Positions 17,847 through 24,186 of a stretch of DNA of 64,000 bases are shown here, piece by piece (the first letter of the stretch is position 1; the number at the start of each line of letters is the position of its first letter). The notes under the pieces were generated by a model, which was given only the letters and a program-made list of their open reading frames with translations, did not search any database and was not told where the DNA came from. Origin of the DNA: Escherichia coli (GTDB lineage Bacteria > Pseudomonadota > Gammaproteobacteria > Enterobacterales > Enterobacteriaceae); assembly GCF_016903815.1 (NCBI RefSeq), contig NZ_CP069973.1; one strand, given 5' to 3'. A program made the position numbers and the translations under genes.

Positions 17847-17860
17847 GACCGGATTTCCGA

Positions 17861-17887
17861 AAAAAGCGCCGCACGGCGCTTTTTTTG
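17861..17887 (+). terminator. rho-independent terminator of rpmE
   Basis: Hairpin agcgccg-cac-ggcgct followed by TTTTTTT, directly after the rpmE stop. Confidence 0.8.
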
Positions 17888-18005
17888 TGCCTGTAATTTG
17901 CCTTTTATAAATTCTGAAAAATTCCGGGGTGTTAACTCATTATCATTTCCTGTTGTTGACTGGCGCTAGGCTTCTGGTTCTTATTTATTTCAAAAGGATT
18001 TTACG

Positions 18006-21000
18006 ATGAGCGGAAAACCGGCGGCGCGTCAGGGCGACATGACGCAGTATGGCGGTAGCATTGTCCAGGGTTCAGCCGGGGTGCGCATCGGTGCCCCCAC
18101 CGGCGTGGCCTGTTCGGTGTGCCCCGGCGGGGTGACGTCCGGCCATCCGGTCAATCCGCTGCTCGGCGCGAAGGTCCTTCCCGGAGAAACCGACCTTGCC
18201 CTGCCCGGCCCGCTGCCGTTCATCCTCTCCCGCACCTACAGCAGTTACCGGACAAAAACGCCCGCGCCGGTGGGGAGCCTCGGCCCCGGCTGGAAAATGC
18301 CTGCGGATATCCGCTTACAGCTGCGCGATAACACACTGATACTCAGTGATAACGGCGGCAGAAGCCTGTATTTTGAGCACCTGTTTCCCGGTGAGGACGG
18401 TTACAGCCGCAGCGAGTCACTCTGGCTGGTGCGCGGCGGCGTGGCGAAACTGGATGAAGGTCACCGGCTGGCCGCACTCTGGCAGGCGCTGCCGGAAGAG
18501 CTTCGCCTGAGTCCGCATCGTTATCTGGCGACGAACAGTCCGCAGGGGCCGTGGTGGGTACTCGGCTGGTGTGAGCGGGTGCCGGAGGCGGATGAGGTGC
18601 TGCCTGCGCCGCTGCCGCCGTACCGGGTACTGACCGGGCTGGTGGACCGCTTCGGGCGCACACAGACGTTCCACCGTGAGGCTGGCGGCGAAATCACCGG
18701 CGTGACGGATGGTGCCGGGCGTCACTTCCGGCTGGTACTGACCACGCAGGCGCAGCGGGCAGAAGAAGCCCGGCAGCAGGCCTCTTCCGGCGGGACGGAA
18801 CCGTCCGCTTTTCCTGATACCCTGCCGGGTTACACCGAATATGGCCGGGACAACGGCATCCGTCTGTCTGCCGTGTGGCTGACGCACGACCCGGAATACC
18901 CGGAGAATTTACCTGCCGCGCCGCTGGTGCGCTATGGCTGGACGCCACGCGGCGAACTGGCGGCGGTGTATGACCGCAGCAATACACAGGTGCGCAGCTT
19001 TACTTACGATGATAAATACCGGGGCCGGATGGTGGCGCACCGTCACACGGGCCGGCCGGAAATCCGTTACCGTTACGACAGCGACGGGCGGGTGACAGAA
19101 CAGCTAAACCCGGCAGGCTTAAGCTACACGTATCAGTATGAGAAAGACCGCATCACCATCACCGACAGTATGGACCGCCGTGAAGTGCTGCACACGCAGG
19201 GCGAAGGCGGGCTGAAGCGGGTGGTGAAAAAGGAACACGCGGACGGCAGCGTCACGCAGAGTCAGTTTGATGCGGTGGGCAGGCTTAAGGCACAGACGGA
19301 TGCCGCAGGCCGGACGACTGAGTACAGCCCGGATGTGGTGACGGGACTCATCACGCGCATCACCACACCGGATGGCAGGGCATCGGCATTTTACTATAAC
19401 CACCACAACCAGTTAACGTCAGCCACCGGGCCTGACGGGCTGGAAATACGCCGGGAATATGATGAATCCGGCCGTCTGATTCAGGAAACCGCACACAACG
19501 GCGATATCACCCGCTACCGTTATGATAATCCACACAGTGACTTACCCTGCGCAACGGAAGATGCCACCGGCAGCCGGAAAACCATGACATGGAGCCGTTA
19601 CGGTCAGTTGCTGACCGTCACTGACTGTTCCGGTTATGTAACCCGTTATGACCATGACCGTTTTGGTCAGGTGACGGCGGTGCACCGCGAGGAAGGGCTG
19701 AGTCAGTACCGCGCATACGACAGCCGTGGACAGTTAATTGCGGTGAAAGACACGCAGGGCCATGAAACGCGGTATGAATACAACGCCGCCGGTGACCTGA
19801 CCGCCGTCATTGCCCCGGACGGCAGCAGAAACGGGACACAGTACGATGCGTGGGGAAAGGCCATCCGTACCACACAGGGCGGTCTGACGCGCAGTATGGA
19901 ATACGATGCTGCCGGACGGGTCATCCGCCTGACCAGTGAAAACGGCAGCCACACCACCTTCCGTTACGATGTACTCGACCGGCTGATACAGGAAACCGGC
20001 TTTGACGGCCGCACACAGCGTTATCACCACGACCTGACCGGCAAACTTATCCGCAGCGAGGATGAGGGGCTGGTCACCCACTGGCACTATGACGAAGCAG
20101 ACCGCATCACACAGCGAACGGTGAATGGTGAAACCGCAGAACAGTGGCGGTACGACGAACGCGGCTGGCTGACACAAATCAGCCATCTCAGCGAAGGCCA
20201 CCGGGTGACGGTGCATTACGGGTATGATGAGAAAGGCCGCCTGACCGGTGAGCGCCAGACGGTGCATCACCCGCAGACGGAAGCACTGCTCTGGCAGCAT
20301 GAAACCAGACACGCTTACAACGCGCAGGGACTGGCGAACCGCTGTATACCGGACAGCCTGCCCGCCGTGGAATGGCTGACTTACGGCAGCGGCTGGCTGG
20401 CAGGCATGAAACTCGGCGACACACCGCTGGTGGATTTCACCCGCGACCGCCTGCACCGGGAAACGCTGCGCAGCTTCGGCCGTTATGAACTCACCACCGC
20501 TTATACCTCTGCCGGGCAGTTACAGAGCCAGCACCTGAACAGCCTGCAGTATGACCGCGATTACACCTGGAACGACAACGGCGAACTCATCCGCATCAGC
20601 AGCCCGCGCCAGACCCGGAGTTACAGCTACAGCGACACCGGCAGGCTGACCGGCGTCCACACCACGGCAGCGAACCTTGATATCCGCATCCCGTATGCCA
20701 CGGACCCGGCGGGCAACCGCCTGCCCGACCCGGAGCTGCACCCGGACAGCCCCCTCAGCGCATGGCCGGATAACCGTATCGCCCGTGACGCGCACTATCT
20801 TTACCGGTATGACCGTCACGGCAGGCTGACGGAGAAAACCGACCTCATCCCGGAAGGGGTTATCCGCACGGATGATGAGCGGACTCACCGGTACCATTAC
20901 GACAGCCGGCACCGGCTGGTGCACTACACGCGGACACAATATGCAGAGCCGCTGGTCGAAAGTCGCTATCTTTACGACCTGCTGGGCCGCAGGGTGGCAA

Positions 21001-22178
21001 AACGGGTATGGCGGCGTGAACGGGACCTGACGGGCTGGATGTCGCTGTCATGGAAACCGGAAGTGCCCTGGTACGGCTGGGACGGCGACCGGCTGACCAC
21101 AATACAGAACGACAGAACCCGCATCCAGACGGTTTATCAGCCGGGGAGCTTCACGCCACTCATCAGAGTTGAAACTGCCACCGGTGAGCTGGCGAAAACG
21201 CAGCGCCGCAGCCTGGCGGATGCGCTTCAGCAGTCCGGCGGTGAAGACGGTGGCAGTGTGGTGTTCCCGCCGGTGCTGGTGCAGATGCTCGACCGGCTGG
21301 AAAGTGAAATCCTGGCTGACCGGGTGAGTGAGGAAAGCCGCCGCTGGCTGGCATCGTGCGGCCTGACGGTGGAGCAGATACAAAACCAGATGGACCCGGT
21401 GTACACGCCGGCGCGAAAAATCCACCTGTACCACTGCGACCATCGCGGCCTGCCGCTGGCGCTTGTCAGCACGGAAGGGGCAACAGAATGGTGCGCAGAA
21501 TACGATGAATGGGGCAACCTGCTGAATGAAGAGAACCCGCATCAGCTGCAGCAGCTCATCCGCCTGCCGGGTCAGCAGTATGATGAGGAGTCCGGCCTGT
21601 ATTACAACCGCCACCGCTATTATGACCCGCTGCAGGGGCGGTATATCACTCAGGATCCGATTGGGCTGAAGGGGGGATGGAATTTTTATCAGTATCCGTT
21701 GAATCCGATCTCAAATATAGATCCATTAGGATTATATGAATTTAAATCAAAAAATATAGATGATATTGGAATATTTGCATTGGCAATGTGTAATGGAGAA
21801 TCAATTAACGAGAATAAAGAATATGGTGGGCTAATATGTAAGAAGCAAGGTGAATATTTCCCCATGAATCCGATAAGTTCAAATGATAATGATAGTGTAG
21901 ACTTGCGAAATATAAAATGCCCTGAAGGTTCAGAGAGAGTAGGCGATTATCACACTCACGGTTTTTACTCTGACGATAAAGGCAATAAAGTAACAAAAGA
22001 AAATGATGTTTATGATAGTCTAAATTTTTCAAGCAAAGATTTAACGAATTCTTATATGAATGGAATGGGAAAAAAAGAATACAGTAGTTACTTGGGAACA
22101 CCAAATAACACCTATCTAAAATATAATCCCAAAGCTAAAGGGAATGGAGTTACAATTATCAGGCAAGGGAGTAATTAA
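18006..22178 (+). CDS. Rhs-family polymorphic toxin: N-terminal PAAR-like region, YD-repeat core, C-terminal toxin tip of unassigned family
   Basis: 1390-aa ORF. N-terminus [11 protein letters not shown]... carries a literal Pro-Ala-Ala-Arg at residues 5-8. GC-rich core with many YD-type repeats (YRYD, YTYQYE, FRYD, WHYDE, WRYDE, VHYGYDE). Core ends with the conserved Rhs motif ...[39 protein letters not shown] (DPLGL at nt 21720-21734), followed by a 147-aa AT-rich tip. Confidence 0.93.
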
Positions 22179-22179
22179 A

Positions 22180-23457: not shown

Positions 23458-23557
23458 GTTGGAGTCATTACCCGCTCAATGTGCTGAGTAAAAATCTTAC
23501 CAGTCAGATGCTTCTCCTTTGGTAACTCTCTAGCGTAACTACCCCATTCGTCAGTGG

Positions 23558-23743
23558 TCAACATGCCGATGGTAAAAGGGTAAGCAGCGCCAGCAGTTCA
23601 CGACAGGTTTCATCAGTCCGGGGGCCAAAAGTGTAGGCCAGAACACCACCAGTTTTCGTGTTGTACACGTACCAGAGCCAGTGCTGTCGCGCTTTACTGC
23701 CGACAAAGCTCCATTGCTGACTAAGTTCGCAGATGAGTGCCAC
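23558..23743 (-). pseudogene. InsB-like N-terminal fragment of the disrupted IS1-family element
   Basis: 61-aa ORF ...ELSQQWSFVGSKARQHWLWYVYNTKTGGVLAYTFGPRTDETCRELLALLTLLP aligns by eye with InsB ([49 protein letters not shown]). The rest of the InsB-like frame (..IERNNLPLRTRIKRLARRTICFSRSVELHEKVIGAF..) is on the other side of the nested IS1 at about 22590-22700. Confidence 0.6.
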
Positions 23744-23769
23744 ATCAGCATGAGCGACCGGGGATGACG

Positions 23770-24042
23770 TTATTTTTCGTGGCGAGAGTTTTTTAAAGTT
23801 CGGATGACTGTATTAATGCCAATTTTCAGCGTACGGGCAGTATAGCGAACCCCGGCACCGTTGAAAGCCATTTCAGCGATTTGGTCTTTAACTCCTGGTT
23901 TACGGGGCTCGTAACAGTAACTGAGCTGAAATACCCGGTGACAGTCACGGCCGCGGAATCGATCATGTCTTTTGGGGTTCTGCCCGTGACGGTAAACCTG
24001 AACGGACTGGCAACGGGGACAATGAAGGTTAACTGTGACCAT
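23770..24042 (-). CDS. InsA-like protein of the divergent IS1-family element
   Basis: 90-aa ORF MVTVNLHCPRCQSVQVYRHGQNPKRHDRFRGRDCHRVFQLSY...NGAGVRYTARTLKIGINTVIRTLKNS; same Cys-x2-Cys zinc-finger plus helix-turn-helix layout as IS1 InsA but clearly divergent. Confidence 0.7.
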   Translation of the reverse strand: MVTVNLHCPRCQSVQVYRHGQNPKRHDRFRGRDCHRVFQLSYCYEPRKPGVKDQIAEMAFNGAGVRYTARTLKIGINTVIRTLKNSRHEK

Positions 24043-24186
24043 GAAACAACCTTAAAAGCGAGTATTATATCCTTAATTCAACTAATTGGAGGCATCACCG
24101 TTTACCGGAGCGACAGCTTGCGGAAAGGTCGTGCAACTACAAAGCAACAAACAGACTACGGCGGGAATTATTTTTTTTATCATCCA

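Follow-up and report, generated by a model that had tools for sequence, protein, structure and literature searches.

The RhsF element of Escherichia coli dates in the literature from the mid-1990s, and automatic annotation labels the locus in thousands of genomes. Its name reportedly belongs to the nomenclature of the Hill laboratory, as set out by Zhao and Hill in 1995 (J Bacteriol 177:1393). The locus described here lies between rpmE and yiiX in a window of 64,000 nucleotides of E. coli contig NZ_CP069973.1, and is very probably an RhsF element: a chromosomal polymorphic-toxin locus rather than an autonomous mobile element. The rpmE-yiiX RhsF island is already known and catalogued, and is common in E. 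coli. The small ORF downstream of rhs carries the NCBI name dsORF-f3, which is RhsF nomenclature and thus marks the element as a catalogued one; rhs locus 11 of E. coli was placed between priA and yiiX by Jackson et al. 2009 (PMC2935791). With RhsF/locus 11 the present locus shares its position (priA/rpmE to yiiX), the downstream dsORF-f3, the sequence of GC-rich core, AT-rich extension and small downstream ORF, and a core of the clade I/RhsA-B-C-F type. The sole differences are an extra, private IS1 and 14 SNPs relative to the nearest relative, strain 7/2; nothing else separates the two over 49.5 kb, and the SNPs fall in two core patches. O157:H7, 042 and O111:H8 carry this island too, as do ~2176 complete genomes.

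Described relatives of the protein are type VI PAAR-Rhs effectors of solved structure, among them Tse5 (8cp6), P. protegens RhsA (7q97), Photorhabdus Tre23 (7pq5) and Tse15 (8uy4). Like them, it has a YD-repeat shell, an Rhs-associated core with the DPxGL motif for autoproteolysis, a variable toxin predicted to be encapsulated, and a presumed immunity gene downstream. The locus differs from them in being without a linked vgrG, Eag chaperone or type VI genes, and in an N-terminus that comprises a short PAAR-like stretch and DUF6531 instead of a full Pfam PAAR domain. The toxin tip has its closest described counterpart in Tox-JAB-2, with which DUF4329 was equated by Zhang et al. 2012 (PMC3482391): the Pfam match, the E, H[ST]H, S and D residues, the predicted JAB/MPN fold and the attachment to RHS repeats are common to both, whereas the signal-peptide-like N-terminus of the partner immunity protein is a point of difference. 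The same paper lists an association with Imm-NTF2, with which the cystatin/NTF2-like model of dsORF-f3 agrees.

The literature also contains a name collision: the "RhsF" of recent EHEC papers is another locus. The EHEC RhsF/RhsFI pair (S-loop 44; z0705/ECs0604; PMC7618764, PMC7216683) shares with the present locus only its name and the pairing of an Rhs effector with an immunity protein; it is located elsewhere, is linked to vgrG and eagR, and ends in another tip. PMC7216683 gives the name "RhsB" (z5488) to the Rhs protein that has a DUF4329 tip. Because the rpmE-yiiX interval of O157:H7 holds rhs and then dsORF-f3, we infer that z5488 is the RhsF locus.

The foreign segment and its native flanks

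The rpmE-yiiX interval holds an intact rhs ORF of 1390 codons, an AT-rich ORF of 107 codons and an IS1H-like relic with an intact IS1 nested within it. The preliminary description, of an accessory Rhs toxin module and nested IS1-family elements between intact rpmE and yiiX, is borne out by the ORFs, the profile matches and the anatomy of the insertion sequences; all of the elements that it named are present, where it had put them or a few bases off.

The left flank, rpmE (ribosomal protein L31; 17634-17846, + strand, 70 aa), is intact and native, and is annotated as rpmE in 7/2, 042 and K-12. On its 3' side lies a terminator (17858-17887), a symmetric A-run/hairpin/T-run that is also native and common to all three alleles of the interval (see below); its RNA fold has a dG of -18.7 kcal/mol (z = -4.0), and none of 200 shuffled sequences folded as well. 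Identity with K-12 and with E. coli C runs to 17893 and then stops. The left end of the foreign segment is a 112-bp leader 5' of rhs (17894-18005, + strand), AT-rich (35% GC over 17901-18005) and unique to this locus. The right flank, yiiX (24187-24795, - strand, 202 aa, stop codon at 24187-24189), is likewise intact and native, and carries the YiiX annotation in all genomes compared. Next to it are the first 28 codons (MIKKIIPAVVCLLLCSCTTFPQAVAPVN) of an ancestral lipoprotein gene of the TIGR02117 family (230 bits against a cut-off of 131). This native remnant (24100-24183, - strand) aligns collinearly with outgroups and with E. coli C, where the gene is intact, and is cut off by the IS1H end. 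The foreign DNA is 17894-24099: the island does lie within the limits of 17847-24186 at first assigned to it, but 47 bp at the left (17847-17893) and 87 bp at the right (24100-24186) of that interval are native sequence.

The IS1H-like relic (22559-24099, - strand) is split by IS1 into a transposase-C-terminal part (22559-22704, - strand), starting with the inverted repeat GGTGATGACTCCAATTAGTAGAA at 22559, and an insA-side part (23473-24099, - strand), whose outer inverted repeat (24077-24099) closes the foreign segment on the right. The insA-side part retains an InsA-like ORF of 90 aa (23770-24042). In strain 7/2 the relic is contiguous and annotated as "IS1-like element IS1H family transposase, frameshifted". 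The flanks of the relic, CATCAGAAG and GTTTACCGG, are unlike each other and hold no target duplication. Direct repeats were also sought at the junctions of the island, and none flank it. A right junction that coincides exactly with the IS1H end, with no target duplication, suggests an IS-associated rearrangement.

The nested IS1 (22705-23472, + strand, 768 bp) is intact: it has 23-bp terminal inverted repeats (GGTGATGCTGCCAACTTACTGAT and GGTAATGACTCCAACTTATTGAT), a target duplication of 9 bp (22696-22704 and 23473-23481, both CGCTCAATG), the A6C frameshift site of insA/insB' at 23009, ORFs of 91 and 167 aa, and 99.1% identity to an annotated IS1A. Its insertion junction is found in 0 of 5426 E. 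coli genomes, and the element is also missing from strain 7/2. This IS1 copy is the only part of the locus that is private to the strain.

The Rhs protein and its C-terminal tip

The rhs ORF (18006-22178, + strand) is divided at a DPLGL motif (residues 1239-1243) into a core (residues 1-1243; 18006-21734, + strand) and a variable C-terminal toxin tip of 147 residues (1244-1390; 21735-22178, + strand). The core comprises an N-terminal PAAR-like segment, DUF6531, the YD-repeat shell and the Rhs-associated core up to DPLGL. It matches the NCBIfam model NF041261 (RHS_core) with 2614.7 bits against a cut-off of 2000, over residues 1-1243 and model positions 1-1261. Within it are a DUF6531 domain (Pfam, E = 8e-19, residues 46-123), five stretches that match the YD repeat (TIGR01643), the Rhs-associated core (TIGR03696, 83.6 bits, residues 1166-1243) and a DPIGL at residue 1217. 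The literal tetrapeptide PAAR occupies residues 5-8, and Pfam PAAR_motif yields a weak partial match (E = 0.066, residues 3-20, model positions 52-69 of 70). Among relatives with solved structures, Tse5 scores best (8cp6, E = 4e-125). The foreign look of the region, remarked on at the outset, has its counterpart in composition: against 52.7% GC for the window overall, the core is at 61.7%, the tip at 31.5% and dsORF-f3 at 29.9%, and the drop from core to tip falls exactly at DPLGL. The Rhs-element pattern of GC-rich conserved core, AT-rich variable extension and small AT-rich downstream ORF is thus present in full.

The tip matches Pfam DUF4329, that is, Tox-JAB-2, with E = 1.4e-15, and its fold is predicted to be JAB/MPN (deaminase-like α+β). 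Its E29, H73, T74, H75, S79, D91, S99 and D102 are invariant or at least 90% conserved among 36 sequences, and the E...HxH...SxxD constellation is complete and conserved. A tip of this kind would act as a JAMM/MPN-type metal-dependent hydrolase. Where the literature calls DUF4329 an RNase or a nuclease (PMC7216683, PMC10469887), it does so only by inference.

dsORF-f3 and the state of the locus

A single nucleotide separates the rhs stop from dsORF-f3 (22180-22503, + strand, 107 aa, annotated start at 22180), which has no family match in Pfam, NCBIfam or PADLOC. The identical sequence in strain 7/2 is annotated as "RHS element protein dsORF-f3". In Enterobacter, Salmonella and Limnobaculum, DUF4329 tips are followed by homologous ORFs of 100-109 aa, whose divergence tracks that of the toxin (toxin/ORF identities of 72/48, 54/30 and 38/24% for the other-genus pairs). 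By this association dsORF-f3 is presumed to be the cognate immunity protein of the tip. Its structural model is of low confidence over residues 1-26 and shows a cystatin/NTF2-like α+β domain in the remainder.

The N-terminal segment of dsORF-f3 resembles a signal peptide, which sits badly with the RNase label of DUF4329. Since the presumed immunity protein has an N-terminus like a Sec-type signal peptide in E. coli, Enterobacter and Salmonella alike, the tip may be read as a JAMM-type metallopeptidase or other hydrolase working in the target cell's periplasm, instead of as an RNase; we regard this reading as improbable.

How the toxin would reach its target can be sketched from the Rhs family. 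The analysis shows the anatomy of the locus, its family memberships, the predicted fold, the allele frequencies and the breakpoints; that the protein is secreted and toxic, that dsORF-f3 confers immunity, and in what order the alleles arose are all matters that we infer. The YD repeats would close as a shell around the protein's own C-terminal tip, which would be released by self-cleavage at DPLGL. By way of its short PAAR-like N-terminus, Rhs would mount the VgrG spike of a type VI secretion system, to be carried into neighbouring bacteria, and dsORF-f3 would shield the producer and its kin from the tip. The 64-kb window contains no type VI secretion genes, vgrG or Eag-type chaperone, and rhs is for that reason an "orphan"; the genome of strain 7/2 has a complete tssA-M/Hcp/VgrG cluster and a second Rhs.

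The orphan position, with no linked vgrG, also figures in the doubtful proposition that the locus has no present role and is a relic, silent or in decay, which hitch-hikes and is slowly eroded by IS insertions and frameshifts. In 042 and O157:H7 dsORF-f3 carries a frameshift, many of its database versions are truncated, and rhs of strain 20KM2222 is broken by IS1A. The frameshifts and the broken rhs imply that the locus is often decaying and may be silent; IS1F and IS1 have, moreover, landed independently in the same IS1H relic, and 55% of genomes are wholly without the locus. In the window, however, rhs (1390 codons) and dsORF-f3 are both intact and IS1 has struck only an insertion sequence that was already dead; the 4.2-kb rhs ORF is open in 7/2, 042 and O157:H7, and the tip keeps all of its catalytic-type residues.

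Still less probable is that tip and dsORF-f3 constitute a toxin-antitoxin-like or regulatory pair acting in the producer itself, independently of type VI secretion and from a promoter inside rhs. Precedents exist in the orphan Rhs of Salmonella and the EHEC "RhsFint-RhsFI" pair at its different locus (PMC7043789, PMC7618764), and the AT-rich tip region does contain a promoter-like site (21889-21918, + strand). The site begins only after the coding sequence of the tip has started, however, and could not drive expression of the whole toxin domain. AT-rich sequence also inflates promoter matches (11 found over the region, 5.8 +/- 2.5 expected), and the EHEC pair, at S-loop 44 and with an unrelated tip, provides an analogy only.

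Three alleles of the rpmE-yiiX interval

A survey of 5426 complete E. coli genomes assigns all but three to one of three alleles: RhsF (2176 genomes), the K-12-type gap (2959) and the TIGR02117 lipoprotein gene (288). A 121-bp probe for the left junction of the island detects a single copy per genome in the 2176 carriers, with at least 99% identity in 2173. The RhsF allele is thus present in ~40% of sequenced E. coli, and ~55% of genomes lack the locus. The island had been taken for a presence/absence polymorphism, and these counts agree. So does K-12 itself: in MG1655 rpmE and yiiX are convergent and adjacent, with 60 bp between them and no Rhs or IS content, as the preliminary description had it.

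Comparison of rpmE-yiiX across genomes, which that description had called for, maps the breakpoints against both other alleles. In E. coli C and in outgroup genera a 624-bp lipoprotein gene of the TIGR02117 family occupies the space between yiiX and rpmE. Relative to E. coli C, the island takes the place of 550 bp of this gene. In the K-12-type allele 635 bp are deleted and 11 nt stand in their place, the left breakpoint of the deletion being no more than one base from that of the island. The three alleles point to an ancestral order of yiiX, TIGR02117 lipoprotein gene, terminator and rpmE, and to the K-12 spacer being a separate deletion allele, not the target of integration. On this reading the island did not enter a K-12-like spacer: the ancestral allele holds the lipoprotein gene.

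The converse history, in which K-12-like genomes have lost the Rhs island and the window represents the older state and not an acquisition, is unlikely. It draws on the fact that the K-12-type allele truly is a deletion, of 635 bp replaced by 11 nt, and on the near-coincidence of the two left breakpoints. Nevertheless, the intact TIGR02117 gene of 288 E. coli and of the outgroup genera is a form from which each of the other alleles can be derived separately; the K-12 allele holds no remnant of rhs, IS1H or the lipoprotein gene that would tie it to an RhsF-bearing precursor; and the rhs core is foreign by composition.

The course of events favoured here, acquisition, would have begun in one lineage with the exchange of 550 bp of the lipoprotein gene for the rhs module and an IS1H element. 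The RhsF allele would then have spread to ~40% of E. coli, while the K-12 type would have arisen apart, by its own 635-bp deletion. The last step, confined to this strain, would have been the entry of a modern IS1 into the dead IS1H, with no functional effect.

The practical gains for this corner of the E. coli chromosome are an exact foreign segment (17894-24099), the recognition of the K-12 spacer as a deletion allele, and a set of three alleles that explains nearly all sequenced E. coli. A JAMM-type metallopeptidase or other hydrolase activity of the tip in the periplasm, if true, would be a new activity class among Rhs toxins.

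A catalogued Rhs element in the rpmE-yiiX interval

The interval between rpmE and yiiX holds an element that is already known, and that about 40% of complete E. coli genomes carry. Its content was read from a six-frame ORF listing and directly from the sequence. The ORF listing places priA at 15233-17431 (minus strand) and rpmE at 17634-17846 (plus strand). The L31 ribosomal-protein leader (17575-17627, plus strand; Rfam RF03157, 60.1 bits) lies upstream of rpmE at its expected place and is the sole match in an Rfam scan of 17000-25500; a symmetric hairpin terminator occupies 17858-17887 (dG -18.7 kcal/mol, z = -4.0). 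There follow an rhs ORF of 1390 codons (18006-22178, plus strand), a 107-codon ORF on the same strand that starts one base past the end of rhs (dsORF-f3, 22180-22503), IS1-family sequences and, in the ORF listing, yiiX (24187-24795, minus strand). GC content is 60-69% across the rhs core and 28-37% across the final 450 bp of rhs and the small ORF. The preliminary description had noted an Rhs gene, a small AT-rich ORF and IS elements at this place; the ORFs, the GC content and the anatomy of the IS elements bear out every particular.

The small ORF carries the product name 'RHS element protein dsORF-f3' in the NCBI annotation of strain 7/2, 042, 20KM2222 and O157:H7. The name dsORF-f3 follows the Hill laboratory's naming of its RhsF element, which was reportedly described by Zhao and Hill in 1995. 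Zhao & Hill 1995 is among the references of PMC3150448. Jackson et al. 2009 (PMC2935791) listed 11 rhs positions in E. coli and Shigella, with locus 11 between yiiX and priA at K-12 position 4,125,000, and inferred that positions 10 and 11 are duplicates of position 5 that arose after the split from B2-type strains. The rpmE-yiiX interval of O157:H7 contains an rhs gene followed by dsORF-f3; we take this gene to be z5488, whose product, an Rhs protein with a DUF4329 tip, is named 'RhsB' in PMC7216683. The EHEC 'RhsF/RhsFI' of 2025 (PMC7618764) was considered as a description of the element and rejected: it lies at a different locus, S-loop 44, and the shared name risks confusion. The initial interpretation of the interval was right in outline, and the element is real, yet it was known beforehand.

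Beyond yiiX, the spacer to metJ (24796-24854) is 59 bp in the window and in strain 7/2, and 183 bp in K-12 and 042, a difference probably due to a small repeat element that some of these genomes have and others lack. The metL-metF region (about 29000-31900) holds a second accessory segment relative to K-12, with genes for a 376-aa hypothetical protein and a 517-aa metallophosphatase/5'-nucleotidase; other E. coli have Tsx and two nucleotidase genes at this spot, and K-12 has neither version.

Three alleles and the boundaries of the island

In K-12 MG1655, convergent rpmE and yiiX are separated by 60 bp, in line with the preliminary description. Probes run on 5426 complete E. coli genomes detected this K-12-type junction in 2959, the RhsF left junction in 2176 and an intact TIGR02117 gene in 288; the three alleles together account for 5423 of the 5426. 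The last of these, represented by E. coli C, BLR(DE3) and others, has an intact 624-bp gene for a TIGR02117-family lipoprotein between yiiX and rpmE. That gene, taken as the ancestral state, is intact in other genera as well and is fully deleted in K-12. The window retains a 28-codon stump of it (24100-24183, minus strand), the translation of which, MIKKIIPAVVCLLLCSCTTFPQAVAPVN, is the signal peptide of a lipoprotein in the TIGR02117 family, and the DNA between the end of an IS1H-like element and the yiiX stop codon is the positional homologue of post-yiiX DNA in Escherichia sp. MOD1-EC7003 and Superficieibacter.

Base-level comparison of the RhsF, K-12 and ancestral alleles locates the breakpoints. 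The stretch missing from the RhsF allele is 550 bp of the ancestral one; it begins at codon 29 of the lipoprotein gene and ends about 10 nt beyond the stop codon of that gene. Window 17894-24099 stands in its place and amounts to 6206 bp, or 5429 bp when IS1 and its duplication are subtracted. In the K-12 allele 635 bp are swapped for 11 nt, and the K-12 spacer would, on this comparison of sequences, itself be a deletion allele. The island had been proposed to be acquired DNA; acquired it is, but rather than inserting into a K-12-like spacer it replaced 550 bp of the TIGR02117 allele. On its right the island stops precisely where the outer inverted repeat of IS1H ends, without a target duplication, which points to an IS-associated rearrangement. 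A search for direct repeats bracketing the island, suggested at the outset, found none beyond chance.

The IS1H-like element is an older IS1-family relic (22559-24099, minus strand; 764 bp without its insert) with the inverted repeats GGTGATGACTCCAATTAGTAGAA and GGTGATGCCTCCAATTAGTTGAA, and no target duplication was found for it; NCBI annotates it in a near-identical genome as 'IS1-like element IS1H family transposase, frameshifted'. It is host to an intact IS1 of 768 bp (22705-23472) with canonical 23-bp inverted repeats, insA and insB' ORFs and an A6C frameshift site at 23009, flanked on both sides by the 9-bp direct repeat CGCTCAATG. A junction probe run on the 5426 complete E. coli genomes did not find the same insertion among the matches listed, which for 376 IS-rich records covered part of the hits. 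This IS1 within a dead IS is neutral, and is the sole strain-specific feature among the matches listed. Independent IS1-family insertions lie within about 1 kb of one another in three other strains: 042 has an IS1F in the relic, 47 bp away from the IS1 site of the window (L002:7155-7923), 20KM2222 an IS1A within the rhs tip (L001:6248-7015), and strain 8600 an IS1A within the TIGR02117 gene. The locus appears to have an IS1 hot spot at its AT-rich end.

The closest of the 5426 complete assemblies is strain 7/2 (NZ_CP023820.1). Over the 49.5 kb compared, it has neither the 768-bp IS1 nor the second copy of the 9-bp repeat. Apart from this, 14 SNPs separate it from the window, 10 synonymous and 4 residue-changing (S91, L785, A799, S835), all within rhs and in two tight patches at 18065-18277 and 20312-20508; the pattern resembles gene conversion with paralogous rhs cores as donors, or cross-talk among rhs copies during assembly or polishing.

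The content of the interval also differs across the Enterobacteriaceae, as seen in a YiiX scan of one genome per species, the matches of which did not include E. albertii and E. fergusonii. A pgtP-pgtC-pgtB-pgtA-like phosphoglycerate transport cluster occupies it in E. whittamii, Escherichia sp. E1V33 and a record labelled E. coli SCPM-O-B-8794 (L006:10610-17440, L007:745-7117, L009:1952-8377); as a candidate for the ancestral E. coli state this cluster was rejected, since it matches none of the complete E. coli genomes. A symporter and a porin are found in Citrobacter, Superficieibacter and Trabulsiella. C. amalonaticus has a split rhs pseudogene (L018:13594-17761, minus strand) beside a yiiX that is frameshifted; the two genes are oriented to each other as they are in the window, and IS1 is close by. 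The pieces of the pseudogene are 70% and 61% identical to the window's core and could stem from a separate event in the interval or from an old one common to both lineages.

The predicted toxin tip, its presumed immunity protein and probable delivery

Against the NCBIfam RHS_core equivalog, residues 1-1243 of the Rhs protein score 2614.7 bits, above the cut-off of 2000; there are further matches to YD repeats and to the Rhs-associated core domain, and DPIGL and DPLGL stand at residues 1217 and 1239. The N-terminus contains DUF6531 and a partial match to the PAAR motif (E = 0.066), with the literal tetrapeptide PAAR at residues 5-8. The nearest solved structures are type VI Rhs effectors: Tse5 (E = 4e-125), followed by RhsA, Tse15 and Tre23. 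The tip, residues 1244-1390, is Pfam DUF4329 (E = 1.4e-15), which Zhang et al. 2012 (PMC3482391) call Tox-JAB-2 and for which they describe conservation of E, H[ST]H, S and D. Across 36 aligned homologues drawn from many phyla, E1272, H1316, H1318, S1322, D1334, S1342 and D1345 are invariant, and the AlphaFold2 model of the tip made from this alignment is confident (pLDDT 92.8); against PDB sequences the tip gives a chance match only (E = 0.17). The term 'RNase' for DUF4329 in PMC7216683 and PMC10469887 is a second-hand label.

Searches with dsORF-f3 returned no match in Pfam, NCBIfam or PADLOC. Homologous ORFs of 100-109 aa stand directly 3' of DUF4329 tips in Enterobacter, Salmonella and Limnobaculum, and their identity to dsORF-f3 falls in step with that of the adjacent toxin (72 to 48%, 54 to 30% and 38 to 24%, toxin to dsORF-f3), the behaviour expected of a cognate immunity gene. 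In the predicted structure, residues 1-26 form an N-terminal helix of low confidence and the remainder is a cystatin/NTF2-like alpha+beta domain, a fold that, if correctly modelled, would agree with the Imm-NTF2 association of Zhang et al. A start resembling a Sec-type signal peptide is seen in dsORF-f3 (22180-22260) and in its Enterobacter and Salmonella homologues (L032:631-957, L033:678-977); the Limnobaculum homologue lacks it. Judged by sequence, such a start on the presumed immunity protein would be at odds with an RNase whose target is cytoplasmic only.

For a role inside the cell of the toxin-antitoxin type, under the control of an internal promoter, PMC7043789 and PMC7618764 give precedents, but such a role is a weak candidate here because the only promoter-like site falls inside the tip. 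The notion that the element is a decaying relic carries some weight, because the window has no link of rhs to a secretion system and several other strains have a broken immunity gene or a broken rhs; for the window it carries less, because rhs and dsORF-f3 are both intact. The missing link and the broken genes also count against the reading of a type VI-delivered toxin. In favour of type VI delivery counts the full tss cluster of strain 7/2, with Hcp, VgrG and another Rhs at the dnaQ-fadE site. The best-supported reading is that the element specifies a type VI-delivered Rhs toxin and its cognate immunity protein: in the manner standard for the Rhs family, the toxin would encapsulate itself and be delivered by the type VI system, and dsORF-f3 would serve as the immunity protein of the producer.
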